Virus record (IMG/VR): IMGVR_UViG_3300028800_000009
Span: 1-64,000 of that record
Source: a virus
DNA length: 64,000 nucleotides
Strand: one strand, 5' to 3'
The notes below the pieces were generated by a model. That model searched no databases, was not told the DNA's origin, and worked only from the letters and a program-made list of their open reading frames with translations. Made by a program: the position numbers and the translations under genes. Of the stretch, positions 330 through 24,793 are shown one piece after another. Position 1 is the stretch's first letter, and each line of letters begins with the position of its first letter.

Positions 330-983
330 ATGTTGAAACGCCCACGCGCGCTTGATCTTTTCTGCGGCGCAGGCGGCGCAACCAAAGGGCTGCAACGCGC
401 CGGCTATAGCGTGATGGGCGTTGACCTCAACCCAATGCCAAACTATTGCGGCGAGATGTTTCGCCAGGACGATGCGACCGGGATGCTTCTATCGGAGATT
501 CGATCTTTTGACTTCGCGTGGGCTTCGCCACCGTGCCAAAAGTTTTGCGCGCTCAACACGCGCGAGGACTTGTCCGGCTATCCTGACCTGATCGAGCCCA
601 TCCGCAACATCCTGATCGAGAGTGGCGTCCCGTTCGTCATTGAGAACGTGCCCGGCGCTCCGGTACGCGCCGATCTCATTCTCTGCGGCGCCATGTTCGG
701 ATTGCGCAGCTACCGCCATCGGCATTTTGAATGCTCCTTTCCGGTCAGCCAGCCCGAGCACCCCACGCATAAGGTCCGGGTGAACCGCCGCGGCGAGAAC
801 CGGCGAGCGCATTGGGCCAACGGCGGCTTCATCACGGTCACGGGCGACGTTGGCACCTACTGCGGCCCGGAAGCCATGGGCATAGATTGGATGAACGGCA
901 ACGAGATGAGCGAGGCGATACCGCCCGCCTATGCCGAGTATATTGGTCGTGCTGCGCTGGCAATCCTTGCCAGCGCAGCATAG
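330..983 (+). CDS. C5-cytosine DNA methyltransferase (short phage type)
   Basis: Motif I LDLFCGAGG, catalytic motif IV WASPPCQ, motif VI IENVPG, C-terminal EAIPPAY; SD gaggag. Confidence 0.9.
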   Translation: MLKRPRALDLFCGAGGATKGLQRAGYSVMGVDLNPMPNYCGEMFRQDDATGMLLSEIRSFDFAWASPPCQKFCALNTREDLSGYPDLIEPIRNILIESGVPFVIENVPGAPVRADLILCGAMFGLRSYRHRHFECSFPVSQPEHPTHKVRVNRRGENRRAHWANGGFITVTGDVGTYCGPEAMGIDWMNGNEMSEAIPPAYAEYIGRAALAILASAA

Positions 984-7724: not shown

Positions 7725-8087
7725 ATGCCACGCGTCTTCATCATCCATGACCAACCCAGGCGGAATAAGGTCTCTGGCGAATTCGAGAGCTGGCGTAATT
7801 TCCGCCCTGCCGGTGAATTCGGGGAACTTGTCACAGTCATACCGTCGATTCGAACATCGAATGACCCGAACGCCGAATTAGTCAAGATTCAGGAAACCCT
7901 CTCCGATTACCGCGAAGACGATTATCTACTTCTCGTCGGTTCTGGGGAGTTCCTCGCCTTTGCCGGTGCGATCGCGGCACGTGCGACCGGGGGTCCGATT
8001 CGTTGGCTCTATTACGATAAGAAAAATGATCGCTACTTTCCGAGTCCGCGGATCGACGTCTACTCAGATGCGGATAAACCACGCTAA
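7725..8087 (+). CDS. Hypothetical phage protein
   Basis: SD gggaga; EFGELVTV and DDYLLLVG motifs. Confidence 0.7.
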   Translation: MPRVFIIHDQPRRNKVSGEFESWRNFRPAGEFGELVTVIPSIRTSNDPNAELVKIQETLSDYREDDYLLLVGSGEFLAFAGAIAARATGGPIRWLYYDKKNDRYFPSPRIDVYSDADKPR

Positions 8088-8102
8088 CCTGGAGAATCAG
8101 AA

Positions 8103-8816
8103 ATGAAATATGAATTCACTGGCGAGACCAAAATATCTTTTGGTGTTACCCTTAAGCGTATTCGCGCCCTCATCGAAATTAAATTATGGGGCGTCGCTAA
8201 GGGCGATCTCGGGGGATGGATCGAGAAAGAAGAAAATTTAGCCCGGGTCCACGGCGACGCCTGGGTCTCAGGCAATGCCCGGGTCTACGGCGACGCCCGG
8301 GTCTACGGCAACGCCCGGGTCTACGGCAACGCCCGGGTCTACGGCGACGCCCGGGTCTCCGGCGACGCCCGGGTCTACGGCAACGCCTGGGTCTCCGGCA
8401 ACGCCTGCGTCTCCGGCAACGCCTGGGTCTACGGCGACGCCCGGGTCTCCGGCAACGCCTGCGTCTCCGACGACGCCCGGGTCTCCGACGACGCCTGGGT
8501 CTACGGCGACGCCTGGGTCTCCGACGACGCCCGGGTCTACGGCGACGCCCGGGTCTACGGCAATGCCTGGGTCTCCGGCGACGCCCTGGTCTCTAAACCC
8601 ATTATCGTTGCTTCTCGTTCCGACGGTTATACTTTTCTTTGCGCGCCGCGAGAAAAGAAGCCTCCAGTTATTATTGCAGGATGCCGATATTTTACTTTTG
8701 GTGAAGCCCGAGAACACTGGGAAAAGACACGAGGTGGTACGCCTCTAGGCGATGAATCTTTAGCTCTCGTCGATCATTTGGAAAGAATGGCAAAAATTCA
8801 AGGGTGGGTAGAATGA
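8103..8816 (+). CDS. Hexapeptide-repeat (left-handed beta-helix) protein
   Basis: N-terminal LKRIRAL...GDLGGWIEKEENL followed by about 19 V(Y/S)(G/D)(D/N)A(R/W/C) repeats. Confidence 0.85.
   Translation: MKYEFTGETKISFGVTLKRIRALIEIKLWGVAKGDLGGWIEKEENLARVHGDAWVSGNARVYGDARVYGNARVYGNARVYGDARVSGDARVYGNAWVSGNACVSGNAWVYGDARVSGNACVSDDARVSDDAWVYGDAWVSDDARVYGDARVYGNAWVSGDALVSKPIIVASRSDGYTFLCAPREKKPPVIIAGCRYFTFGEAREHWEKTRGGTPLGDESLALVDHLERMAKIQGWVE
8252..8592. repeat. Coding 18-bp tandem repeat (cggc(g/a)acgcc(c/t)gggtct(a/c))
   Basis: Visible directly in the sequence. Confidence 0.9.
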
Positions 8817-9358
8817 CCGACGACATCGAATCTGCCCCCGATCCATCGAACGACGACCTCGCCGAAGTCTCGCGTCTCGCTAAGCGCGTCCTGGAGCTAT
8901 CCTCTACAATCGATGCGGCACAAGCCGAACTCGACGATATCGAGACGAAGGTCCTACCGGAGCTTATGGCTCTGGTAGGACTCGCCGAGTTCCGCCTCGA
9001 TAGCGGCGAGATCGTGAAGCGTGGGACCGTCGTCCGGGCGTCGATACCCGAAGAGCATCGCTACGAGGCCCACGCACGGCTCGCGGCGATGGGCCATGGC
9101 GATTTGGTCAAGCATGTTATCTCGCTCCAGTTCGGGAAGGGGGAGTCGCAGCAGGCGACGCGCGCCTATGACCTTCTTCGCCAAGAGTTCCCGGACCTTC
9201 CGATTGGGGATAAGGAGTCGGTTCACTCGGGCTCGCTCACGGCGCTGGTAAAGGAACTTCTCTCAAAAGGTCAAGACGTTCCGCTTGACCTTTTTGGCGT
9301 CTTCATCCGCCACGGTGTCACGATCAAGGCGGCGCGGCGAAAGAAGGAGGAATTATGA
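8813..9358 (+). CDS. Conserved phage replication-cluster protein
   Basis: LPELM...FRLDSG...GHGDLVK...VHSGSLTALVKE pattern, typical of genes near SSB and SNF2 helicase. Confidence 0.65.
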   Translation: MTDDIESAPDPSNDDLAEVSRLAKRVLELSSTIDAAQAELDDIETKVLPELMALVGLAEFRLDSGEIVKRGTVVRASIPEEHRYEAHARLAAMGHGDLVKHVISLQFGKGESQQATRAYDLLRQEFPDLPIGDKESVHSGSLTALVKELLSKGQDVPLDLFGVFIRHGVTIKAARRKKEEL

Positions 9359-10674
9359 AAATCGTCAAGTTCCAGGCCGAGCACTTCAAACGGCTCAAGG
9401 TCGTCGAAATCTCCCCCAGCGGCGATATGATTACGCTCGCCGGCAAGAATGGATCAGGGAAGTCCTCCGTCCTCGACGCGATCTACGCAGCCCTCGGCGG
9501 CCGGGACGCCGCGCCCGAGGTCGCAATCGCGCGCGGCGAGGAGAGCGCCCGTATCCGCCTCGACCTCGGCGAACTCGTCGTAACGCGAAAGTTCACCGCG
9601 AGGGATACCTCAGTCGTCGTCGAGGCGGCTAACGGCGCGCGTTTCCCGTCGCCCCAGCGGATGCTCGACGACTTAATCGGCGCTATCGCCTTCGACCCGC
9701 TTCGGTTCGTAAGGCTGAAGCCGAAGGAGCAGATGGATGAGCTTAGGAAACTCGTCGCCTTCGACGTCGACCTCGACGACCTCGTCCGCCTGAACGCCGC
9801 CGATTACGAGGTGCGGCGGGAGATAAATCGGAGGGCGGCGAGTCTCAGGGCGCAGGGAAGCGCAATCATCGTGCCGGACGATTGCGCTTCCGATCCGGTC
9901 GACGCGAAGGAGATACTCGACCGCCTCACGTCGGCGGGAGACGCGAACGGGAAGCTGGACTATGAGAGGCGTCGGCGCCGGAAACGTGCCGACGACGTCG
10001 AGTCGCTCCGAGTCTCGGCCCGTCTCAAACGCGAGCGGGCGGCGGAACTCAGGCTCGCGGCCGAGGCCCTCGACGGTTCAGCGCGGAAAGCCGACGACGA
10101 CGCGATCGCGATAACCGCCGAACTCGATGGCCTCGCGCCCGTCCCCGATCCGGTCGATGCAGCGGCGATACGGGCGGAATTGGCCGCTGCGGAGGTGATA
10201 AATTCCGCCGTCGCGCGACGCGCCGAGAAGCTCCAGCTCGAAGGAGCCGCGGCGGCCGAGGAGGTGAAGGCGGCAATCATCACAGAGACGATAGCGGGGC
10301 GCGAGAAGGAGCGCACCGAGGCCCTGGCTGCGGCTAAGTTTCCGATCGAGGGGTTAGCATTAGGGAAAGAGGAAGTTCTCTATCGCGAACTCCCTCTTTC
10401 CCTCGCCTCCTCCGGCGAGCAGATACGGGTATCGATGGCCATTGCGATGGCGATGAACCCGACCCTCCGGGTCATATCCATTCGGGAGGGATCGTTCTTA
10501 GACCAAGAAGGTCTAAGAACGATCGCCGAGATGGCGCGGGAGAAGGGTTATCAGGTCTGGGTCGAAGACAACCGGTCGACCGACCCTATGGCGATCGTGA
10601 TGGAAGACGGGAGCGTCTCGGAGTGCCCCGGCCACGTCGCGTCGGAGGCGGACCCGACCCGACGAGCCCGCTAA
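9355..10674 (+). CDS. SMC/Rad50-like coiled-coil ATPase
   Basis: Walker A GKNGSGKSS, long coiled coil, signature-like ASSGEQ. Confidence 0.85.
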   Translation: MKIVKFQAEHFKRLKVVEISPSGDMITLAGKNGSGKSSVLDAIYAALGGRDAAPEVAIARGEESARIRLDLGELVVTRKFTARDTSVVVEAANGARFPSPQRMLDDLIGAIAFDPLRFVRLKPKEQMDELRKLVAFDVDLDDLVRLNAADYEVRREINRRAASLRAQGSAIIVPDDCASDPVDAKEILDRLTSAGDANGKLDYERRRRRKRADDVESLRVSARLKRERAAELRLAAEALDGSARKADDDAIAITAELDGLAPVPDPVDAAAIRAELAAAEVINSAVARRAEKLQLEGAAAAEEVKAAIITETIAGREKERTEALAAAKFPIEGLALGKEEVLYRELPLSLASSGEQIRVSMAIAMAMNPTLRVISIREGSFLDQEGLRTIAEMAREKGYQVWVEDNRSTDPMAIVMEDGSVSECPGHVASEADPTRRAR

Positions 10675-10696
10675 TTCCCCCCTAGCGGGTTAACTA

Positions 10697-10732
10697 CCGG
10701 GGCGCGTTCCCCCGAGCGCGCCCCGGCTTTTT
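10697..10732 (+). terminator. Rho-independent terminator
   Basis: ccggggcgcg-loop-cgcgccccgg followed by cttttt. Confidence 0.7.
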
Positions 10733-10744
10733 CGAGAGGATATT

Positions 10745-11050
10745 ATGGCTATGAAGAAGAAGATTAACTGGAAAGCGCGGGCGCTTGAATCGGAGCAGGA
10801 CCACGATATTATCCGCTTCGAGTTCGAGCGCCCGATCCCGATAATCCTCTTCTGCCCGATGTGCGGACTTCGCCATATCGACGTCGGCGAGTTCTCGGAG
10901 AAGCCCCACCATACCCATGCCTGTCAGGGCTGTGGCTTCGTCTGGCGGCCATCGACGCGCTTCACGGTCGGGGTCCAGTTCCTCCCCGATTTCAAGGACG
11001 ACCCCGAGGCGATTAAGCGTTGGGAGAAAGCTCAAAAGGTGCCGTTGTGA
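10745..11050 (+). CDS. Zinc-ribbon hypothetical protein
   Basis: CPMC...H...CQGC; SD gagagga. Confidence 0.65.
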   Translation: MAMKKKINWKARALESEQDHDIIRFEFERPIPIILFCPMCGLRHIDVGEFSEKPHHTHACQGCGFVWRPSTRFTVGVQFLPDFKDDPEAIKRWEKAQKVPL

Positions 11051-11637
11051 ACCACATCATGATAGACCTGGAGACCCTCGGCGTCGGAACCTTCCCCGCA
11101 CTCCTCTCGATTGGCGCGGTCGTCTTCGATCCGGAGAGCGGGGTATTACCTCCGACTCCTAATCTTGAAGCATCTGCGAGCAGTTGGATGATGCGCTTAA
11201 TCAGCGTCGAGAGTTGCCTTCGCCTCGGCGCTACGGTTTCCGATTCGACACTCGCCTGCTGGGCTTCCCCCGAACTCGACGCCGCCCGCCCGGGGACGTT
11301 CGGGGGAACTTATCCCATAAAAGACGCGATCAATGACTTAAATATATTCGTATGCCATTACGGCGCGCAGCGGGTATGGTTCCACGGTTTGACTTTCGAC
11401 GTCGCTATCCTTACGAGGTACGCCGAGCTTGTCGGTTTATCCTGGCAGTTCGACTATCGCGCCGGCCGCGACACGCGGACGCTCTTCGACCTCGCGCCGG
11501 AAGTCGTCCGTGAAGCGTTCGCGGATAAGCCGTCCGAGTTTATTAAGCACAACGCGGTCTGGGACGCGTGGCTCCAAGCGAAAGCCGTTTGCAAAGTCTA
11601 CGCTGAACTGAGGAATTGTCAGTGGTTCGCGGGCTAA
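11047..11637 (+). CDS. DEDDh 3'-5' exonuclease
   Basis: HIMIDLETLG, FDVAIL, RDTRTL, HNAVWDA. Confidence 0.85.
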   Translation: MNHIMIDLETLGVGTFPALLSIGAVVFDPESGVLPPTPNLEASASSWMMRLISVESCLRLGATVSDSTLACWASPELDAARPGTFGGTYPIKDAINDLNIFVCHYGAQRVWFHGLTFDVAILTRYAELVGLSWQFDYRAGRDTRTLFDLAPEVVREAFADKPSEFIKHNAVWDAWLQAKAVCKVYAELRNCQWFAG

Positions 11638-11732
11638 AGCTCCGATCTTCCTCTATCCCGGCGGCCGACCGCCGCTGGCATGCCGCTCGCCGGGAGCGGC
11701 TTACATCCCCCGGCTGCCAAGAAGGAGTAATC

Positions 11733-12638
11733 ATGACTGAGAAGAAGCACCAGGACACCGAAGCAAAGAACCTGCCGGAAGAGATACCGCCAAAGCGCGA
11801 AGAGAATCGCGCTTTGGCCGTCGTCGATTACGGCGATCAGGCCGGCGCCGGCGCCGAGGGGATGAGCCAGGACGACTACAAGATTCCGCTGTTGCGAATC
11901 CTCCAGACCAATTCGCCCCAGGTCGACGGCGAGAAGAAGATCGAGGGGGCGGTTGCGGGGATGATCTTCAATACGGCGACCCAGGAGTTTTGGGACGTGA
12001 CGAAACAAAAATTAATTTTCGTTCCGTCACAACGAGACCGGAACTTCGTCGAGTATATCCCGCGCGAGCCGTGGGGCGGCGGTTTCGTCGGAACGCGGAA
12101 GCCGGACGATCCGCTCGTCCTTAAGCTTCTCAAAGAGCAGGGGAAGTTCGGGAAGCTGAAGTATGCCGAAGGGACGACACTCGCGACGACCGGCCAGCAG
12201 GTCCCGACCGAGATCAGCGATACGTTCTACCTCTACGGTATCGTTGTGACGCCGTACGGGGTCCCCCAGCGCGCGGTCATCCCGTTTACCTCGACCCAAA
12301 TCCCGAAATACCAGGCATGGGCCGCGGTCTACGATAACACGCGCTACCCCGGGAAGAACCGCTCGCTCATCCTCCCCCCGGTGTGGTGCCACCGCTACGC
12401 GCTCGGGACCCGCGCCGAATCGAACAAGAAGGGGCGTTTCTACGGCTGGACGCTCGGCTTCGAGAAGAGCCCGTCGATCGAGAGCCGGATCGATGCGCGG
12501 GAAGGCCATCCCGAGTTCGACCCGCTGGCGAAGATGGCGTCGGAGTTTTACGATATGATCAAGCGGGGCGCGGCGAAGATCGACCGCGATGCCGAGCAGG
12601 CCGCCGGCGTCGAGAAGGACGAAGAAGTTCCGTTCTAG
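11733..12638 (+). CDS. Putative single-stranded DNA-binding protein
   Basis: SD aaggag; IPLLRILQTNSPQV family motif; acidic tail ending in Phe (EKDEEVPF). Confidence 0.6.
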   Translation: MTEKKHQDTEAKNLPEEIPPKREENRALAVVDYGDQAGAGAEGMSQDDYKIPLLRILQTNSPQVDGEKKIEGAVAGMIFNTATQEFWDVTKQKLIFVPSQRDRNFVEYIPREPWGGGFVGTRKPDDPLVLKLLKEQGKFGKLKYAEGTTLATTGQQVPTEISDTFYLYGIVVTPYGVPQRAVIPFTSTQIPKYQAWAAVYDNTRYPGKNRSLILPPVWCHRYALGTRAESNKKGRFYGWTLGFEKSPSIESRIDAREGHPEFDPLAKMASEFYDMIKRGAAKIDRDAEQAAGVEKDEEVPF

Positions 12639-12824
12639 ATGAAGCTTGTTCGATCCAACGGTAGTGAGCTTACGGTAAGGGATACGGGGCCGGTCGTTTT
12701 CCGGCTCCGTGCCTCGCCGGGCGCCCCGTTACCGTTGTTGGATGAAGTTATGGAAGAGGAGGAAGCCAGGATCATCCTTCGAACGCTCCTGGCTTCCCGC
12801 CGCTACGAAGGGGGTAAGGTATGA
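12639..12824 (+). CDS. Hypothetical protein
   Basis: Coupled to both neighbours. Confidence 0.45.
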   Translation: MKLVRSNGSELTVRDTGPVVFRLRASPGAPLPLLDEVMEEEEARIILRTLLASRRYEGGKV

Positions 12825-13312
12825 CGATACTCTGCGACCGCGACTTGCTCGAACTCATGAGGGATGGCCTCATTTCCCCATTCGACCCGGAGATGATCAA
12901 TCCGGCGAGCATTGATATCCGGGTTGGTCGAACGGCGATCGTCGAGGGCAATGACGGCCTTAACGTCCCACTGACGCTAGGCGAGTACGGCCTCCTCGTC
13001 GCCCCTGGGGAGACGGTCCTGATCTCGACGATGGAGACCTTCGATATCCCGAACGGGTATGCGATGGACCTGCGCCTCAAGTCATCGATCGCTCGGCGGG
13101 GGTGGAACCACGCCCTCGCGTTCTGGGTTGATCCCGGGTGGCGTGGGGTACTTACGATGGAGGTGACGAATAAACTCCGCTACAACCACCTGATCCTGAC
13201 GCCGGGCGAGCGTTTCGCCCAGGTGATCGTCCACGAGCTATCGGCGCCATCGGCCCGGCCATACGCCGGGAAATATAAGGATTCCAACGCAGTATCGGGA
13301 GAACGGAAATGA
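12821..13312 (+). CDS. dcd: dCTP deaminase (trimeric dUTPase superfamily)
   Basis: NPASIDIR, KSSIARRG, VDPGWRGVLTME, YAGKY. Confidence 0.85.
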   Translation: MTILCDRDLLELMRDGLISPFDPEMINPASIDIRVGRTAIVEGNDGLNVPLTLGEYGLLVAPGETVLISTMETFDIPNGYAMDLRLKSSIARRGWNHALAFWVDPGWRGVLTMEVTNKLRYNHLILTPGERFAQVIVHELSAPSARPYAGKYKDSNAVSGERK

Positions 13313-13525: not shown

Positions 13526-14176
13526 ATGAATCAGATCACCAAGTTTTTCGTCGTCGACTACCGTCTATTGAACGATATCAAGATCGCTGAATATCCAACC
13601 GAGGAGGAAGCTCGCACGAACTGCCCGTCCGAGGGCGGCGCGAGCGTCGTTACCTCCGAGGAAGCGCTCCGCGCCTTCGACGGACCAATCCTCGTCGCGG
13701 TGTACAACCGTATCCGCCGCGGCGCCATGATCAAACGGTTCGAGAGCAAGGAAGCCGGCGTCCGCCGTGTCTGGGTTCTTTTGGAGAACTACGACCCGGC
13801 GCTGATCAATCCCTCGGCTTCGCCCGAGGTTCCCAAAACCGAACCGACGACGGGCGAAGCCGCCGGCGACAAAGAGGAGGCCGATATGGCCGCAAAGACG
13901 AAGTCCAAACGCAAGTCCGCCGGCCGCGGCGTCAAGAAAACGAGCGCGCGCGCGCGTTCGTCCGATACGAAGCGCGCGCGTATCTCCGACGACGCGAAGA
14001 TCACGGTCCTCGCGGCCGAAAACCCGAAGAAGCCCGGCTCGGAGGCTTTCAAACGCTTCGAGAAATACCGGACCGGCTCGAAGGTCTCGACGACGCTCGC
14101 GAACGGCGTCACGCGCGCCGATCTGTCGTGGGACCGCGCCCACGGCTTCATTGCGATCGAGAACCCGAAGGAATAA
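13526..14176 (+). CDS. Hypothetical protein with a basic linker and an NPKKPGS...ADLSWD C-terminal domain
   Basis: Leader gggagaatcaagcATG; Lys/Arg-rich middle suggests DNA binding. Confidence 0.7.
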   Translation: MNQITKFFVVDYRLLNDIKIAEYPTEEEARTNCPSEGGASVVTSEEALRAFDGPILVAVYNRIRRGAMIKRFESKEAGVRRVWVLLENYDPALINPSASPEVPKTEPTTGEAAGDKEEADMAAKTKSKRKSAGRGVKKTSARARSSDTKRARISDDAKITVLAAENPKKPGSEAFKRFEKYRTGSKVSTTLANGVTRADLSWDRAHGFIAIENPKE

Positions 14177-14197: not shown

Positions 14198-15148
14198 ATG
14201 GGCCTTAAATCCGCGGTAGCGTTCTTCAAAGGGATACCTGACCGGACGAGGGATATCTATTCCTTTGACGAGGGTTGGATGTATACCTCGGCCCTCTCCC
14301 TCGACGCGGCCTACCCGGTCCCCCATATGCTCGGGAAGTTTGGCCTTACCGCTTCCGACCTCGACGCCGCCGTAACCCGGTTCGCCGGGGAGCCGCGGGT
14401 CGAGGCCGGTGACGGGACACTCGTCCTCAAATCCGGGCGACTGAAGAGTTCCATCGACCTCGTCGACGTCGACGAGCCGAGTCAGGCGCTCCATAAAACC
14501 GTGCCGAACCCGGACGCGATACCGGAGAACCTCCTCGAAGCGATCGAGAGGGTCCTACCGTTCGCTGCTAGCGACGGGACGTGGCAGAAGTCGGTCGAGC
14601 TATCGAAGGGGAAGGTCCGGGCGATTGATTCCTATCACGGCGCCTCGGCGGAGGTCCCCGGGCTCGACCTCGGCGATCCTCTCCCGTTGCCCGCGGATAC
14701 CCTCAAATTCATCGTATCGCGGGAGGCGCCGATCGGGATCAAGCGGCTCCCCTCGGCGCTCGCTATCTTCTGGGCCTCCGGAGCGTGGGTCCTGCTTAGG
14801 CTCTCGACCCAGGCGTGGCCTTCGCTGGCGGACAGTATCTTCGCCAAGGCGAAGGATGCGGAGACGCCGGTCGCCTTTACCGACGAATGGCGCGAGGCGT
14901 TCGTCGACGTCGCCGCCCTCGGGGACGGATATATCGACCTCGCCCCGGACGGCCTGACCGCGAAGACGGCTCACGCCGAGGCTCGCGCGGAGCTACCGAC
15001 AGGCGCGGCCGGTAGCTCGCGCTGGCGGCGGGCGAACCTCGCCGACGTAATGAAAGTCGCCACCCACTGGGATCCCGACGCTCCGGCCCCGGCCCCGTTC
15101 CGCGGCGATGGGATCGTCGGTATCGTCGCGGGCGTGAGGACGAAGTAA
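14198..15148 (+). CDS. Phage sliding clamp (DNA polymerase III beta-like)
   Basis: Size, C-terminal PAPFRGDGIVGIVAGVR and position beside PolB resemble phage-encoded replicative clamps. Confidence 0.7.
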   Translation: MGLKSAVAFFKGIPDRTRDIYSFDEGWMYTSALSLDAAYPVPHMLGKFGLTASDLDAAVTRFAGEPRVEAGDGTLVLKSGRLKSSIDLVDVDEPSQALHKTVPNPDAIPENLLEAIERVLPFAASDGTWQKSVELSKGKVRAIDSYHGASAEVPGLDLGDPLPLPADTLKFIVSREAPIGIKRLPSALAIFWASGAWVLLRLSTQAWPSLADSIFAKAKDAETPVAFTDEWREAFVDVAALGDGYIDLAPDGLTAKTAHAEARAELPTGAAGSSRWRRANLADVMKVATHWDPDAPAPAPFRGDGIVGIVAGVRTK

Positions 15149-15149
15149 A

Positions 15150-15731
15150 GTGGGGAACCGTATATCGGCGCTCCTTCACACCCATTCTATCGCGCCGGAT
15201 AAGGCTAACCGTCATCCATCCGATTTTTATCGCACGCCACCTATCGGAACCGAGCGCTTACTCGATTACGAACAGTTACGCGGCACGGTATGGGAACCGG
15301 CGTGCGGCGACGGGGCGATCAGCGAAGTCCTAAAGGCCCGCGGGATTAAAGTTATCTCGACTGACCTCTATAATCGCGGCTATGGCCGGTCCGGGGTAGA
15401 CTTCCTTACGGCCAAACCGCCGAAAGACTTCGCCCATATCCTTACGAACCCACCTTTCAAACTGATCGAGCCGTTCGTCGCGCGAGCCCTAGAAGTAACG
15501 CCGCGGAAGGTAATTATCCTCGCGCGTCTACTCTGGTTAGAAGGGAAGACGCGCCGGAAGTTCTTCTTAAAGGCGCCATTAAAGCGTATTTGGGTCTCAT
15601 CCTCCCGCCTGAACGTCTCGCGCGGCGGTAAGGACTACGGCGACGGAGGGGAGGGCGGAATGGTTGCCTTCGCCTGGTACGTCTTCGAGCGCGGATATAA
15701 AGGGAAACCAGAGCTAGGATGGCTACCATGA
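15150..15731 (+). CDS. Amino (N6A/N4C) DNA methyltransferase-like protein
   Basis: DFYRTP, SAM-binding WEPACGDG, catalytic TNPPF, AFAWYVF. Confidence 0.8.
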   Translation: MGNRISALLHTHSIAPDKANRHPSDFYRTPPIGTERLLDYEQLRGTVWEPACGDGAISEVLKARGIKVISTDLYNRGYGRSGVDFLTAKPPKDFAHILTNPPFKLIEPFVARALEVTPRKVIILARLLWLEGKTRRKFFLKAPLKRIWVSSSRLNVSRGGKDYGDGGEGGMVAFAWYVFERGYKGKPELGWLP

Positions 15732-15738
15732 GGAAACG

Positions 15739-18700
15739 ATGCCAGGCATAAAGTTCGGCGGCGCGAAAGCCAAGAAGAAGGTGAAAGAAGACGGCGACCT
15801 ACTTTCTCTCGCTTCGGGGAAAGATGAGGGTCTTCTTCTTTCCCCCTCCGACTCCTGGTCCGAGGTCTGGAAAGGGATGCCAACCTACGAGATGGGGTCG
15901 ACCGAAGCCTTCCGAAAGGTAACGATCCATCTCCGCGATCCTGGAGAGTTAGAGGACCTCTCCAGGATGCTCGGGATCGATTTAACCGACCGGACCTCGA
16001 CCGTCTATCTCTCCCGCGACGAGGACTACGTCGCGCCGAAGGAGCTAATCTACGAGAGCGACGATCCGAGGCCGCCGCGCTACCCGGTCTACGTCATCTC
16101 CAAGGGGCGTTGGGATACGCCGCTAACGGCCGAGGCCCTCCGCGCGATCGGCGTTCCACATAAGGTCGTCATCGAACCTTCCGAGGCCTCCCGGTACGAG
16201 GAGGCGCTGGGTAAGGAGCGTCTTCTCGTCGCCCCGGAAGACTTCTCGAAACGCGGCGAGGGCGGTATCCCCGTCCGTAACTTTGTTTGGGAGACGGCCG
16301 TCGCGAGCGGAGCGAAGCGGCATTGGATCCTGGACGATAACATTCACGGGTTTCTACGATTGAACAGGAATCGGAGAATCCCCGTGTCGGGGCCGTCGAT
16401 TTTCCGCGCAGCCGAAGACTTCTCCGACCGCTACGAGAACGTCGCGCTGTCGGGCTTCAACTATATGTACCTAGCGCGGGACAATCAAGAGCTACCGCCT
16501 TTCTGTTTGAACACGCGTATCTACTCGATGATCCTGATCAATCACGATCTGGATCTCCCGGAGCGTTGGCGGGGTCGGTATAACGAGGATACGGACCTTT
16601 CCTTACGCGCCCTCAAGGCCGGATGGGCGACTGTGCTCTTTAACGCGTTCCTCGGGGATAAGGCGCCGACCCTGACGATGAAGGGCGGCAACGCGGAGAT
16701 ATACGCCGACAGCGATCGTCGGCGCGAGTTCGCGGAGAGCCTTAAGGCCCAGCACCCGGACGTCGTCGAGGTCGTCTGGCGCTACGAACGCTGGCACCAC
16801 GAGGTCAACTATCGGCCTTTCGCCGGAAACCGGCTGATCCCGAGGAAGGATCAGCCGGTTTCCGCCGGCGAATACGGAATGAGGATCGCGCGCAGCTCCC
16901 GGACGGGCCGCTATGTCCCCCCGCCGCTCGCCCCGGTCGTTATTACGATGGCGCCGAGGAAAGCGGAGGCTCTTCCAAAAGAACCCGTAGAAATAAAAGA
17001 AGAGCCTCCGCTTTCCTCGGTTTCCCTAACCCCACGCTCCTCTAAGCCGGAGAACGCCGCCCCCGTCGTTTTCGCCCCCCGCGCCGCTAAAACGACGATG
17101 TTGAGCGCCCCCGAGGCGAACCGCTACGTCGACCCCTTCCTTCGCTCTATCGAGCCCCAGCTTAAGGTCTGGGATACCGAGCTATACCCGCCGAAGTTCG
17201 ACTACGCGACGTGGCCGTGGGGCGATAAGTCCTTCGTCGTCGCCGACGTCGAGGTATTCGAGAATTTTTTCCTCGTGGCGGTCAAGCGTTTGCAGGATGG
17301 CAAACGCTTGACCTTCGAGCTTAGCGATCGCTCCCCGAAGCTTAATCGGATCGAGCTAGAGACCGTGATGCTGAATAATTGTATCGTCACGTTCAACGGC
17401 AATAACTTCGACCTCCCGATCATCGGGATGGCGCTGCTCGGCTTCGATAACCGTAAGCTCAAGGAGGCATCGAATCGGATCATTCGCGAGGGGATCAAGT
17501 CGTGGGATATTGAACGTGAATTCGGGGTTCGACTTCCCAAGTTCAATTCGATCGATCTTATGGAGCCCAACCCGAGCGTACGGATGGGGCTTAAGATGCT
17601 CCACGCGCGGCTGAACGGTCGCTTCATCGTCGATCTTCCGTTCGAGGATGTCGAACTGAGTAGCCGCGAGATGAACGTCGCGACGCTCTACTGCCTTAAC
17701 GACCTCGACGCGACCGAGGGACTCTGTAACGCCCTCCGGGAACCGCTCGACCTTCGTCGCGCCCTCTCGGGCCAGTACGGAATGGACCTGCGCTCGAAGA
17801 GTGACGCCCAAGTCGGGGAAGCGATCGTAAAGAGCCGGGTGGGGATTAGGGGGAACCCGAAAGACGGTATCCCTTCGATACAGTCTTTCGGGTATTCTGT
17901 CCCCAGCTTTGTATCCTTCGAAAGCCCAGCCCTCCGCGAAGTCCTCCGTAGCCTCCGCGAGACGACCTTCCACATCAACGGCTCCGGTCGCGTCGAGACC
18001 CCGGATTGGCTTAAGGACCTTTCTATACCTCTAGGCTCGGCCGCGTATACGATGGGAATAGGCGGTCTTCATTCGACCGAGGGCTCGCGCGCCATTCTCT
18101 CGGACGAAGAGAACGTCCTCGTCGATATCGACGTCTCTAGCCAGTATCCGAGGATCATCCTCAAGCTCGGGCTCTACCCGAAGGCGCTCGGGCCGAAGTT
18201 CCTCGACGTTTACCGCGAACTGACGGACGAGCGCGTCGCCGCGAAAGCGGCCGGCGATAAGACGAAGGCCGATGGCGGTAAAATCGCGCTGAACGGGGTG
18301 TACGGCAAGCTCGGATCGTCCTATTCGATCCTCTACGCCCCGGACCTGATGATCGCGACGACCCTGACCGGCCAGCTCTCGCTCTTGATGTTGATTGAGC
18401 GCCTTGAAGCCGCGGGGATACCCGTGGCTTCAGGCAACACGGATGGCGTGCTCCCGTTCGTGAAACGATCGAAGCTGAAGGAATTAGCTTCGATCGTTTC
18501 GCGATGGGAGGCCGAAACCGGTTTCGCGATCGAGCGGACGGAGTACGACGCGATCTACAACTCGTCCGTCAATTCTTATATCGCGGTAAAGCCCGGCGGA
18601 AAGACCAAGATCAAGGGGCCGCTCGCTAACCCATGGCGCGAGGGGAATCTCCGCGAGATGCTATCGAAGAACCCCCAGATGACGATCCTCTCGGACGCGC

Positions 18701-19065
18701 TCGTGGACCTGATCGTAAAAGGAACGCCGGTAGAGGAGACGATAACAAACGCGGCGGACCCGCGCGCGTTTGTTACGGTAATCCAAGTACGCGGCGGCGC
18801 AGAATGGCGCGGAGCGAAGCTCGGGCGCGTCGCGCGCTATTACTATTCGTTCGACGGCGATCCGATCCTCGACGCGAAGGGGAAGCGCCAGGTTGCGAAA
18901 ACGGAGGGAGCGAAGCCGTTAATGGAATTGACGGCTTCGCTCCCCGAAGACGTGGATCGTTTGCGATACTTCGAAGAAGCGAAAGCGCTCGCCGTCGACT
19001 ACGCTATCCTGAAACCAGAGGGAGAGTTAGCTGAAGATAGTTGTTGTGTAATTCCGTTTGTGTAA
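15739..19065 (+). CDS. Fusion protein: WxGMP small domain + TET-associated/GREB1-like glycosyltransferase + family B DNA polymerase with 3'-5' exonuclease
   Basis: GT part: YPVYVISKGR, RNFVWE, HWILDDNI, NTRIYS, RYNEDTDLSLR, MKGGN, WHHEVNY. Pol part: ADVEVF (ExoI), FNGNNFD (ExoII), YCLND (ExoIII), DVSSQYP, KIALNGVYGK, NTDG. Confidence 0.85.
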   Translation: MPGIKFGGAKAKKKVKEDGDLLSLASGKDEGLLLSPSDSWSEVWKGMPTYEMGSTEAFRKVTIHLRDPGELEDLSRMLGIDLTDRTSTVYLSRDEDYVAPKELIYESDDPRPPRYPVYVISKGRWDTPLTAEALRAIGVPHKVVIEPSEASRYEEALGKERLLVAPEDFSKRGEGGIPVRNFVWETAVASGAKRHWILDDNIHGFLRLNRNRRIPVSGPSIFRAAEDFSDRYENVALSGFNYMYLARDNQELPPFCLNTRIYSMILINHDLDLPERWRGRYNEDTDLSLRALKAGWATVLFNAFLGDKAPTLTMKGGNAEIYADSDRRREFAESLKAQHPDVVEVVWRYERWHHEVNYRPFAGNRLIPRKDQPVSAGEYGMRIARSSRTGRYVPPPLAPVVITMAPRKAEALPKEPVEIKEEPPLSSVSLTPRSSKPENAAPVVFAPRAAKTTMLSAPEANRYVDPFLRSIEPQLKVWDTELYPPKFDYATWPWGDKSFVVADVEVFENFFLVAVKRLQDGKRLTFELSDRSPKLNRIELETVMLNNCIVTFNGNNFDLPIIGMALLGFDNRKLKEASNRIIREGIKSWDIEREFGVRLPKFNSIDLMEPNPSVRMGLKMLHARLNGRFIVDLPFEDVELSSREMNVATLYCLNDLDATEGLCNALREPLDLRRALSGQYGMDLRSKSDAQVGEAIVKSRVGIRGNPKDGIPSIQSFGYSVPSFVSFESPALREVLRSLRETTFHINGSGRVETPDWLKDLSIPLGSAAYTMGIGGLHSTEGSRAILSDEENVLVDIDVSSQYPRIILKLGLYPKALGPKFLDVYRELTDERVAAKAAGDKTKADGGKIALNGVYGKLGSSYSILYAPDLMIATTLTGQLSLLMLIERLEAAGIPVASGNTDGVLPFVKRSKLKELASIVSRWEAETGFAIERTEYDAIYNSSVNSYIAVKPGGKTKIKGPLANPWREGNLREMLSKNPQMTILSDALVDLIVKGTPVEETITNAADPRAFVTVIQVRGGAEWRGAKLGRVARYYYSFDGDPILDAKGKRQVAKTEGAKPLMELTASLPEDVDRLRYFEEAKALAVDYAILKPEGELAEDSCCVIPFV

Positions 19066-19082
19066 CGCATTATGTAACGGCA

Positions 19083-19472
19083 ATGCCAACAGTCTCGTGC
19101 AAGAAATGCGGGGGCGACCATGTCACGTAGGAGTGTCGATCGTCGCCTGCAAAAGTGGCGGCCTTCGCTAAGGCGAAGGAAGCGGCCACTCCCGCAACGC
19201 ATCACGATGCTGGTCAAGTTCCGCGACGCGGCCGAAGTTCGCCGTCTCCGACAGTTAAACCCAGGGAGCGACGTGAGTCTGTTGTATTGGGGCTCAACAA
19301 GGATCGTGGACGTGAGCTATCCCCGCCAGATCCTCCTCCCCTTGTTGTATCTCGGCGGCACTCCAATCTATGCGCCCCACCAGGAGAATGCGCCTATTGC
19401 GACCGTCGCCGGCAATACGCCCGAGACGGAATGACCAAGACCAGGCGCAAGAAGGCGAAGGGGCCGAAATGA
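19083..19472 (+). pseudogene. Zinc-knuckle protein interrupted by an in-frame TAG at 19128-19130
   Basis: MPTVSCKKCGGDHVT*EC continues in frame into the 19155-19472 ORF. Confidence 0.45.
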
Positions 19473-21700: not shown

Positions 21701-21780
21701 GGCGAGTTCATGTGCGACGATGCGCGCGAAGCTGGAACGGTCGAGATGACAGTCGCTGAGTTGCGCGGGGCTAGATGTTG

Positions 21781-22497
21781 ATGCGGTATTTTGGGGGCAA
21801 GCAGAGAATAGCCCATCGGTTGGCGGCGGTTCTTACCCCGCTTGCTATACAGCGCGGTAACTACGTTGAGCCTTTTGTTGGTGGTGCTGCGGTAATATCG
21901 CACGTTTCCGCGCCCGTCAGGATAGCCTCAGACAGCAATTTGGCTTTGATAACTATGTGGAGTGCGCTTGCGGCAGGGTGGTCCCCGCCAGAGGATGTTT
22001 CAGAAGCGACATACGCCTCTATAAAGACCGCCGCAGACCCCAAAGACCCACTCACGGCCTTCATTGGGTTTGGGGTTTCTTTTGCCGGGAAGTGGTTTGG
22101 CGGCTACGCGAGAGGCGGCGCAGGAAGAAATTACGCGGCAAATGCCGCCTCGTCATTGAGAAGAAAGATGCGTGGCTTAGAAGGGGTGCGGTGGATAGCG
22201 GGCGACTATCGGGTATGCCCTACTCCTCCCGGGGCTGTCATCTATTGTGACCCTCCTTATGCTGGGACAACTCAGTATGGCGCTGTAGCGCCGTTTTTGT
22301 GGTCCGAGTTTTGGGCTTGGTGTCTTGCCAAACATGATGCTGGAAACGCAGTTTTTGTTTCCGAATACGCCGCCCCCGAAACCTTTCGAGCGATCCTCAC
22401 GATCCCCGTTAAGACTGACATTCGAACAAAGGCGAACGGGAAGGAGCAACGACTAGAAAAGCTGTTTGTCCCTAATAAGGGTAGCTCTTATGGGTAA
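21781..22497 (+). CDS. Dam-like (D12 class) DNA adenine methyltransferase
   Basis: MRYFGGK, YVEPFVGG, YCDPPY, VFVSEY. Confidence 0.88.
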   Translation: MRYFGGKQRIAHRLAAVLTPLAIQRGNYVEPFVGGAAVISHVSAPVRIASDSNLALITMWSALAAGWSPPEDVSEATYASIKTAADPKDPLTAFIGFGVSFAGKWFGGYARGGAGRNYAANAASSLRRKMRGLEGVRWIAGDYRVCPTPPGAVIYCDPPYAGTTQYGAVAPFLWSEFWAWCLAKHDAGNAVFVSEYAAPETFRAILTIPVKTDIRTKANGKEQRLEKLFVPNKGSSYG

Positions 22498-24010: not shown

Positions 24011-24793
24011 ATGACCGACCTCATCGCCTACCACAACGACCCCGCGCTCAAATCCTTCGTCCTCGCGCAGCTCGTCGAGCACCGCGAGCACGACAAACTG
24101 GTCAAGGGCCAGTATTGGGAGAATGGTAAAGGCTGCGCGGTTGGCTGCACGCTTGAAGCCGTGCGCCTGCATAAAGGCAACGCCGCGAAGATTGCTCACA
24201 ACAAGCACGCGCTCTATGAGGCCGAGCTTGGTATTCCAATGATCCTCGCGCGCCTGGAGGACAAGCACTTCGAGGAACTGAGCAATGGCGACAGCCAAGC
24301 ATGGCCCGAGCGGTTTATTTCGGCGATCAAACCCGGTGCCAATCTCGCGATGATCTGGCCGCGGTACGCACTCTGGCTATTGAGTGAGGAATTGCCGCAA
24401 CGCGCCAAACGACCGGCTACGGTCGCGTCTCTTGCTGAAGTCGCGGCGCTCTACCGTGAATGGATGGAGGGCGCGAAGCCCAGCGCGGAGCGCTGGCTGA
24501 GCGCCCGTAGAAACGCCGCCGACGCCTACGCCGCCGACGCCGACGCCGCCGCCGCCGCCGTCTACGCCGCCGTCTACGCCGACGCCGACGCCGTCTACGC
24601 CGACGCCGACGCCGCCTACGACGCCGCCGACGCCGCCGCCGACGCCGCCGTCTACGCCGCCGTCTACGCCGACGCCGACGCCGACGCCGACGCCGCCGTC
24701 TACGCCGCCGCCGACGCCGCCGTCTACGCCGCTCGCGCTTCCTTCTGGAAGCGCTCGGCAGACAAGATCATCGAATTACTTGAAGCCGCGTAA
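24011..24793 (+). CDS. Conserved phage protein with an Ala/Asp/Tyr low-complexity tract
   Basis: GQYWENGKGCAVGC N-terminus; gccgac/gccgtctac microrepeats at 24515-24735. Confidence 0.75.
   Translation: MTDLIAYHNDPALKSFVLAQLVEHREHDKLVKGQYWENGKGCAVGCTLEAVRLHKGNAAKIAHNKHALYEAELGIPMILARLEDKHFEELSNGDSQAWPERFISAIKPGANLAMIWPRYALWLLSEELPQRAKRPATVASLAEVAALYREWMEGAKPSAERWLSARRNAADAYAADADAAAAAVYAAVYADADAVYADADAAYDAADAAADAAVYAAVYADADADADAAVYAAADAAVYAARASFWKRSADKIIELLEAA

Follow-up and report, generated by a model that had tools for sequence, protein, structure and literature searches.

What a virus might gain by joining an enzyme that transfers sugars to the polymerase that copies its DNA is the question raised by one gene of the IMG/VR virus record IMGVR_UViG_3300028800_000009. 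The stretch analysed here, referred to as the window, comprises positions 1–64,000 of this record, and coordinates beyond it are marked 'genome'. The gene (P0001 in the table below) runs in a single frame from a glycosyltransferase of the TAGT family to a family-B DNA polymerase. The fusion is genuine and conserved, and is one case of a wider pattern of TAGT heads on phage polymerases. On balance, the tethered head is probably a DNA-modifying enzyme that is covalently recruited to the replisome, such that nascent phage DNA would be glycosylated at the polymerase exit. The complete record, of 72,121 bp and 59.6% G+C, carries direct terminal repeats (an exact 80-bp repeat was found) and has a completeness rating of 100%; the same DNA recurs in rhizosphere metagenome runs of 2019, as that of an uncultured soil phage.

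One gene for a glycosyltransferase and a DNA polymerase

The gene has a GAGG-type ribosome-binding site 5–6 nt upstream of its ATG and encodes, in order, a disordered tail, a small adaptor domain, the TAGT core, a Pro/Ala-rich tether and an exonuclease with its polymerase. The preliminary description, drawn from the sequence alone, had recognised one stop-free open reading frame (ORF) with four parts; these are all present by the translation of the ORF, Pfam and PHROG, and the disordered tail makes a fifth.

Several lines of evidence establish that the fusion is genuine, with one ORF coding for one polypeptide. Eleven proteins from different contigs, 46–60% identical, share the architecture with the linker always in frame, and the residues that are invariant in the two enzymes are kept across these relatives despite the poor conservation of the linker, in which 19 of 110 residues are Pro. 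The in-frame codons for M381, M404, M454 and L455 have no Shine–Dalgarno (SD)-like motif upstream, in agreement with the earlier remark that the Pro-rich linker, here ~110 aa, lacks a convincing internal SD sequence, and between nt 16900 and 17250 each of the other two frames contains 4 stops. The linker is crossed with 0 gaps and 0 differences by independently assembled contigs of three other runs (X1, X2 and X3), in which no insertions or deletions were reported for 15600–19200; one of these runs is possibly the source sample, and contigs lose rare variants. The stop or frameshift for which the preliminary description had advised a search is therefore not seen in these contigs. Moreover, the genome holds a single TAGT domain and a single recognisable polymerase.

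The TAGT head is assigned by Pfam (PF20691, aa 115–317; E 2.9e-35; 122.5 bits, the cut-off being 27.5) over the full profile (1–205) and by PHROG 842, the T6-type beta-glucosyl-HMC-alpha-glucosyltransferase (aa 114–357, E 1.1e-40), and is the only TAGT match in a scan of the genome (127.5 bits). Two AlphaFold2 models cover aa 1–400 and aa 478–1108 of the protein. In the first (84 homologues; pLDDT 87.4, pTM 0.86) residues 1–37 are disordered and residues 40–394 form one ordered body. When this model was compared with the PDB by Foldseek, 198 matches were obtained at E ≤ 1e-3, of which the best 48 are all GT-A glycosyltransferases (E 4e-6 to 9e-5, TM 0.28–0.38); the Foldseek matches include COLGALT1, POMGnT1, the glycosyltransferase domain of LH3, SpsA, ppGalNAc-Ts and TarP. 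A VIA search, which is independent of Foldseek, listed 50 matches with Z scores between 13.7 (rmsd 4.4, 214 aligned) and 9.0. Nearly all are glycosyltransferases of GT-A fold, for the most part GT2-type, and among the lowest-ranking are a few nucleotidyltransferases with the same alpha/beta architecture. No sequence relatives of the head were found among solved structures. The head is thus, as modelled, a TAGT-family enzyme of GT-A fold, which bears out its earlier placement in the TAGT/GREB1/base-J family; the peptide motifs quoted for it are likewise found in the translation.

Seven residues (D199, D200, N201, E226, D284, K308 and G316) are identical in 238 of 238 aligned TAGT cores, a set that includes 54 cores fused to a family-A polymerase (PolA), 12 fused to the PHROG-1252 type of family-B polymerase (PolB) and 1 fused to a classical PolB. 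D199-D200-N201 is located at the end of strand 194–199, presumably the position at which GT-A enzymes carry their DXD motif, with NEDTD at 282–286; E226, D284, K308 and G316 also show no variation in a smaller set of 84 sequences. Since the seven family invariants are kept in all these cores, fused ones included, a decayed, non-catalytic head appears unlikely.

The polymerase matches PHROG 1252 at aa 493–1084 (E 5.5e-161), and its model (79 homologues; pLDDT 94.2, pTM 0.91) finds in the PDB a top 50 composed entirely of family-B polymerases, aligned near full-length (E 1.3e-13 to 1.2e-11, 630–770 aligned columns) and including those of 9°N, KOD, Tgo and Pyrobaculum, E. coli Pol II and Pol alpha. 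A phmmer search of the PDB also returned family-B polymerases only, with 1s5j as the best (E 1.1e-4). Because the Pfam PolB models PF00136 and PF03104 give no match to this part at E ≤ 1, the polymerase is, from sequence and model, to be regarded as a divergent, compact branch of family B. The residues D503/E505, N553/D558, Y651/D655, D796/D798/Y803/P804, K848/N852/G853/G856/K857 and N900-T901-D902-G903 are invariant in 11 sequences, as are the equivalent positions in 79; they are taken here to be the Exo I–III and Pol A, B and C motifs. Both folds and their catalytic residues are therefore present, as expected of the complete exonuclease and PolB that had been described. Since no family-A polymerase was found in the genome, the fusion ORF is the one DNA polymerase that can be recognised there. 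Among cultured phages, it is closest to polymerases that stand alone, in Rhodobacter phages (45.7% identity over aa 498–1095) and in Pseudomonas, Xanthomonas and Stenotrophomonas siphophages, with 40–46% identity overall across the same region.

The adaptor is ordered in the model, with a mean pLDDT of 56 for residues 31–40 and of 84–96 for the 10-residue blocks from residue 41, and is detectable in 195 of 239 TAGT proteins. The preliminary description had it as usually a separate small gene beside such glycosyltransferases. This holds for IMG/VR: of the 85 TAGT cores that 80 loci contain, 48 are preceded by it in a frame of its own immediately upstream, 23 are fused to it and for 14 none was found. 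It does not hold for cultured phages, where the alignment of 25 records mostly starts at aa 37–44, inside one annotated glycosyltransferase gene.

Recurrence of the fusion and interchangeable heads

Fusions of TAGT domains to polymerases recur. A word-indexed search with aa 1–480 returned 97 proteins (of 609–1939 aa), 50 of them also with PF00476, and among 239 TAGT proteins labelled by BLAST there are 53 PolA fusions (54 with P0016, labelled by Pfam PF00476 alone), 12 fusions to the PHROG-1252 PolB type and a single one to a classical PolB. Proteins with both TAGT and PolB, for which the preliminary description had proposed a metagenome search, are those of the latter two groups. In the classical PolB fusion the adaptor and TAGT domain are found at the C-terminus, and in the other 65 polymerase fusions the head is N-terminal. 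A FastTree phylogeny of the 238 cores was rooted at the midpoint, its support values are all local, and gains are indistinguishable from losses in it. On this tree 14 changes are required to explain the PolA label, and branches of ≥95% support force no fewer than 7 of these; the PHROG-1252 PolB-type label requires 3, of which at least 1 is forced. The present protein falls in its own clade of 9 with 99% support. Subject to the same limit, the fusions seem to have arisen repeatedly on family-A polymerases, on the PHROG-1252 PolB type and on classical PolB.

Polymerase fusions are nevertheless a minority of the TAGT family: in an exhaustive HMMER search that gave 1561 cluster representatives at E ≤ 1e-3, proteins of at least 900 aa account for 9 of the best 150. 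No fusion of glycosyltransferase and polymerase was found in 50,697 phage records, where the 25 records of cultured phages that match the head are all stand-alone glycosyltransferases and none of the 979 that match the fusion protein covers at least 80% of the query. A metagenome scan for loci likewise listed no match to both the head and the polymerase part, and no locus related to the fused relative P0047 was found in the viral contigs searched. A literature search, to which Iyer et al. 2013 and supplements were out of reach, found no published description of such a fusion, and the preliminary description had known of none. What is new is the covalent architecture; the enzyme families and the concept of replisome-coupled glycosylation are already known.

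The heads carried by this polymerase family are varied. Of 1886 matches to the polymerase part, the 120 closest were classified by their N-terminal extension. In 64 it is shorter than 60 aa, in line with the earlier statement that this PolB type usually stands alone, and in 14 it is 60–130 aa long. A TAGT head is present in 8, a PF01555 N4/N6 DNA-methylase head in 18 and a head of 150–310 aa without a Pfam family in 16. Ten of these 16 were tested, and all contain an element of ~60 aa that matches PHROG 15396 ('ParB-like partition nuclease', E 1e-11 to 1e-15) and is then followed by a Pro/Ala-rich linker. The element corresponds to positions ~135–215 of PHROG 15396 and is the only recognisable part of those heads (P0254, P0258, P0268, P0279, P0296, P0327, P0332, P0342, P0344 and P0347); it is also found ahead of the methylase in P0313. 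Methylase-headed PHROG-1252 polymerases include, besides P0313, the proteins P0261, P0265 and P0303, and such methylase–polymerase fusions may merit a study of their own.

TAGT cores are also joined to partners other than polymerases. In the set P0012, P0014, P0016, P0040, P0071, P0073 and P0088 these include the Bet recombinase, an FkbM-methylase with ParB, a uracil-DNA glycosylase (UDG) with PolA, radical SAM, an SNF2 helicase, a virophage cysteine protease (Dishui Lake virophage 8) and a PD-(D/E)XK nuclease. The UDG, found together with PolA, is of family 4, and a GT1 enzyme is a further partner. Fusions to radical SAM are seen in P0040 and P0092, and the closest stand-alone relative of the present head (L005 of IMG/VR, 8939–11398; 64% identical core, 452 aa, with a tail of ~70 aa) directly follows a radical SAM gene. 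TAGT paralogues stand side by side in 2–3 copies in L041 (three), L015, L022, L038, L059, L046 and L075, an arrangement that suggests multi-step glycan building.

The proposed modification: target, acceptor and timing

How such a protein might work can be outlined as follows. A competent TAGT enzyme of GT-A fold, together with its adaptor, would be tied by a flexible tether of ~110 aa to the N-terminus of the only recognisable polymerase of the genome, a compact family-B enzyme with proofreading, and would glycosylate phage DNA immediately behind it. The Leu-rich peptide of the tail may additionally dock the head on a second pocket of the phage beta-clamp, thereby forming a tool-belt. The pay-off would be an interval of unmarked nascent DNA that is shortened or abolished, and protection from host nucleases. 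DNA as the target, the timing at the fork, the docking on the clamp and the protection are thus what we infer. The strongest, albeit indirect, argument that the head works on DNA is one of analogy, because DNA methylases, whose substrate is certainly DNA, occupy the same position on the same polymerase family. The preliminary description had likewise proposed that a tethered glycosyltransferase would act on DNA at the fork. The putative coupling is made more plausible by the recurrence of the fusions, by the methylase heads and by the clamp-binding-like motif.

Observations on the tail motif count both for and against this reading, and those on the acceptor and on related phages and enzymes count against it. 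Bacterial beta-clamp-binding peptides are described with the consensus QL[S/D]LF, more generally QxxLF, and QLSLPL as a tight binder (PMC12309361). The tail of the present protein (aa 1–39) contains a short conserved Leu-rich motif, in which L24 is invariant in 11 relatives. Using patterns that were written after the sequences had been viewed, and an expectation taken from windows of the same length elsewhere in the same proteins, Q-x-x-L-[FILM] is found in the 25 residues that precede the adaptor in 37 of 50 PolA-fused heads (0.4 expected), a count dominated by 36 PolA fusions that form one clade, and in 15 of 125 other TAGT proteins (0.3 expected). The PHROG-1252-type heads have the canonical Q-x-x-L-F form in 0 of 12 and a Leu-rich variant, [QDE]-x-x-L-x-L, in 7 of 12 (0.3 expected). 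The Leu-rich motif is a candidate beta-clamp-binding peptide and, with a beta-clamp-like gene two genes upstream, fits the tool-belt model at the level of sequence.

The acceptor presents a difficulty. In the complete genome there is no match to TET/JBP (PF12851), to a ThyA-type hydroxymethylase (PF00303), to ThyX (PF02511), to 2OG-FeII_Oxy_3 (PF13640), to radical SAM or to ParB_N. Related records were surveyed on the longer contigs of 45 of 80 IMG/VR loci, 3 of them polymerase-only, which leaves 42 TAGT-bearing records, 8 at ≥90% completeness. TET is above its cut-off in 0 of the 42, with one 13-bit fragment that contains a stop, and ThyA is found in 0 of the 42, its lone match being in a polymerase-only record. 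Hence none of the characterised TAGT acceptors is available, and among the genes of the window none for a nucleotide sugar was recognised. The four DNA methylases of the genome (two short C5, one small amino-methylase and one D12-class N6A) and its dCTP-deaminase-like protein do not create a hydroxyl acceptor either. The preliminary description had treated hydroxymethyl-pyrimidine DNA as the established substrate of the family; for this phage that is an assumption. As the genome has no known route to 5-hydroxymethylcytosine (5hmC) or 5-hydroxymethyluracil (5hmU), the acceptor is either the product of an unrecognised enzyme or of a new kind. A very divergent hydroxylase may be present among the ORFans, of which those at 24011–24793 and genome 71029–71883 have no Pfam or PHROG match; the former, of 260 aa, gave no dioxygenase lead in the Atlas.

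The nearest records with a stand-alone polymerase contain a TAGT domain in 0 of 3 genomes, two of them at least 93% complete, and the head is therefore an accessory that is dispensable for replication. In addition, the TAGT relative GREB1 reportedly acts on a protein, as an O-GlcNAc transferase (PMC7968844).

Among 76 TAGT loci there is no dominant partner, the best real neighbour family occurring in 9; the neighbours include terminases, family-B polymerase (8 loci), an NAD-dependent sugar epimerase (8), UvsX, Toprim primase and radical SAM (5). According to the sources, ~65% of phage glycosyltransferase contigs have no neighbouring 5mYOX or ThyS (bioRxiv 2023.12.21.572611), and solitary TAGT homologues are counted in 288 of 753 phage genomes (PMC13216743).

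Other explanations have to be set against glycosylation of DNA at the fork. The pathway could be the classical one with a hidden step, in which the C5-methylases make 5-methylcytosine (5mC), an unrecognised oxidase, or the methylase-like enzymes themselves, convert it to 5hmC and the TAGT domain glycosylates this base. The two C5-methylase paralogues with full catalytic motifs, the ORFans that remain and the established phage clusters of C5-methylase, TET and glycosyltransferase (as described in PMC8256090) would suit such a route, but the genome lacks TET/JBP and 2OG-FeII_Oxy_3 matches, the 260-aa ORFan offers no lead, and C5-methylases occur in 5 of the 42 TAGT-bearing records only, from which it follows that 5mC is not a general requirement of this TAGT branch; this explanation is accordingly thought unlikely. 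An equally small likelihood is given to a head whose sugar goes to an acceptor other than DNA, for example a protein such as the polymerase itself, the clamp, the single-stranded DNA-binding protein or a host factor, with the fusion securing only co-expression or localisation. The report on GREB1, the many phage glycosyltransferases without a neighbouring base-modification enzyme and the missing acceptor pathway are all compatible with it, yet the fusion partners of TAGT domains are overwhelmingly DNA-handling enzymes, DNA methylases take the same place on the same polymerase, and the characterised phage members of the family are described as acting on DNA (PMC13216743).

Less probable still is a non-catalytic head that serves as a DNA- or nucleotide-sugar-binding, regulatory or processivity module. 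Such a role would agree with the lack of an acceptor pathway and with heads that are interchangeable and optional on PHROG-1252 polymerases, but it is hard to reconcile with the seven invariants, including the DDN metal/NDP-sugar motif, that are kept in every one of the 54 PolA, 12 PolB-type and 1 classical PolB heads. That adjacent genes were merely joined by an assembly or sequencing error, or form a recent pseudo-fusion, is the most improbable of all: the assembly is metagenomic and the depth modest in the runs examined, but eleven independent proteins have the same architecture and frame, the contigs of X1, X2 and X3 cross the linker unchanged, and the other two frames are closed by stops. 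There is, finally, a more far-reaching proposal, doubtful as it stands although less so than these alternatives, by which tethered and orphan TAGT heads would share a new acceptor chemistry (on a canonical or merely methylated base, or on the backbone) that is co-replicative by way of a shared beta-clamp tool-belt, with at least three polymerase lineages carrying interchangeable DNA-marking heads, namely glycosyltransferase, N4/N6 methylase and ParB-like element.

The closest functional parallel to a glycosyltransferase acting at the fork is the alpha-glucosyltransferase of T4, which binds the gp45 clamp (Sommer et al. 2004, as cited in PMC13216743, where the pull-down was repeated). It too is a DNA sugar transferase that is physically coupled to the replisome, with glycosylation proposed to occur during replication. 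Unlike the present head, the T4 enzyme is described as a separate protein of GT-B fold that sits non-covalently on the clamp and acts on 5hmC incorporated from hm-dCTP, whereas the head studied here is GT-A and covalent to the polymerase, in a genome with no dCMP hydroxymethylase homologue; the likeness is therefore one of function and not of membership. Closer by descent is the T2/T6 beta-glucosyl-HMC-alpha-glucosyltransferase, the phage founder of PF20691, which belongs to the same PHROG 842 and is GT-A (PMC13216743, PMC13390438). That enzyme is reported to stand alone, to have ~300 aa and to attach a second glucose to glucosyl-5hmC, whereas the head studied here is part of a fusion, in a genome with neither a first glycosyltransferase nor 5hmC to build on.

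Metavirome clusters of C5-methylase, TET (5mYOX) and GT-A glycosyltransferase also contain phage GT-A enzymes that act on DNA, in that case after replication (Burke et al. 2021, PMC8256090; bioRxiv 2023.12.21.572611), and the same sources name DNA polymerase, clamp and methylase genes as neighbours. The glycosyltransferases they describe are separate genes beside 5mYOX or ThyS, neither of which is found in the fusion phage, and the words 'fusion' and 'fused' are absent from the preprint. The kinetoplastid base-J glucosyltransferase and GREB1 share a homologous catalytic domain with the head, GREB1 being a nucleic-acid-related protein of several domains in which this domain is fused to an SFII helicase module (PMC6163654); both are eukaryotic, the former requires 5hmU made by JBP, and the latter is the reported protein-modifying enzyme. 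The RcWhiteOak-type and siphophage PHROG-1252 polymerases have the same compact exonuclease and PolB and no N-terminal head; the RcWhiteOak polymerase gene follows an exonuclease gene, and no glycosyltransferase is annotated.

Replication-coupled DNA glycosylation has so far rested on one non-covalent case, that of the T4 enzyme with gp45. A covalent fusion would give direct genetic evidence of selection by phages for DNA modification at the fork, and it provides a simple one-protein system in which coupled glycosylation could be tested. It also sharpens the question of what 'orphan' TAGT enzymes glycosylate without 5hmC or 5hmU, the answer to which could reveal a new DNA modification. Such a modification would bear on the evasion of restriction and CRISPR, on sequencing bias in viromes and on tools that label DNA during synthesis.

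Genes around the fusion

The clamp and amino-methylase genes lie directly upstream of the fusion on the same strand, as the preliminary description had noted. The stop codon of the methylase is 7 nt ahead of the fusion gene, so that the two are translationally abutting. The clamp assignment rests on PHROG and on an Atlas structure whose cluster has PF00712 in 83% of its members; its match in the PDB, to DNA polymerase III beta (4trt_A), is weak (E 0.18). Pfam and PHROG scans of the remaining genes indicate replication, nucleotide and structural functions only.

Features of the fusion gene, contigs that cross its linker and other genes of the window
Feature	Position	Strand	Basis or remark
Whole fusion gene P0001, 1108 aa	15739..19065	+	one ORF, ATG start, no internal stop
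Lys-rich disordered N-terminal tail, aa 1–39	15739..15855	+	pLDDT <50 for residues 1–37
Small acidic adaptor domain, W-x-G-M-P signature, aa 40–112	15856..16074	+	ordered in AlphaFold2 model
TAGT (PF20691) GT-A glycosyltransferase core, aa 113–385	16075..16893	+	Pfam, PHROG, Foldseek, VIA
Pro/Ala-rich tether, aa 386–495	16894..17223	+	length and sequence vary among relatives; no internal start signal
3'-5' exonuclease and family-B DNA polymerase, aa 496–1108	17224..19062	+	PHROG 1252, Foldseek
Contig over linker, X2 record 13	16550..17328		
Contig over linker, X3 record 17	16125..17452		
Contig over linker, X1 record 4	16932..17508		
Short C5-cytosine DNA methylase, 217 aa, FCGAGG/SPPCQ/ENV motifs	330..983	+	
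Second short C5-cytosine DNA methylase paralogue, 237 aa	3314..4027	+	
dCTP deaminase-like (DCD/dUTPase fold) nucleotide-pool enzyme	12821..13312	+	PF22769 E 4.7e-24; PHROG 1663
Beta-clamp (DnaN-like) processivity factor	14198..15148	+	PHROG 947 E 3.6e-19; Atlas structure TM 0.84
Small amino-(N6/N4)-DNA methylase, 193 aa, NPPF motif	15150..15731	+	PHROG 799 E 3.7e-58
D12-class N6-adenine DNA methylase	21775..22497	+	PF02086 E 1.3e-10; PHROG 56

The two C5-methylase paralogues (PHROG 363) are unusually short, with complete catalytic motifs and almost no target-recognition region. Between the dCTP-deaminase-like and clamp genes lies an ORFan of 216 aa (13526–14176) with a Lys/Arg/Ser-rich low-complexity centre and without a Pfam or PHROG match. 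Further upstream, at 7725–12638, a conserved cassette encodes, in order, a Pam3 gp32-like protein, a YdcK beta-solenoid, a Pam3 gp33-like protein (DUF7307), an SMC-N-type P-loop ATPase (PHROG 1499), a small ORF, an Rv2179c-like 3'-5' exonuclease and a Pam3 gp34-like protein. The Pam3 gp34-like cassette follows the polymerase lineage and not the TAGT domain, since it was found in 1 of the 45 IMG/VR records, that one being polymerase-only. Outside the window, a NusG-like protein (PF02357, E 7.3e-16) is encoded on the minus strand at genome 67073–67582 (L082:5073–5582), where its gene adjoins that of an 800-aa primase-helicase of the RepB-primase/VapE type.

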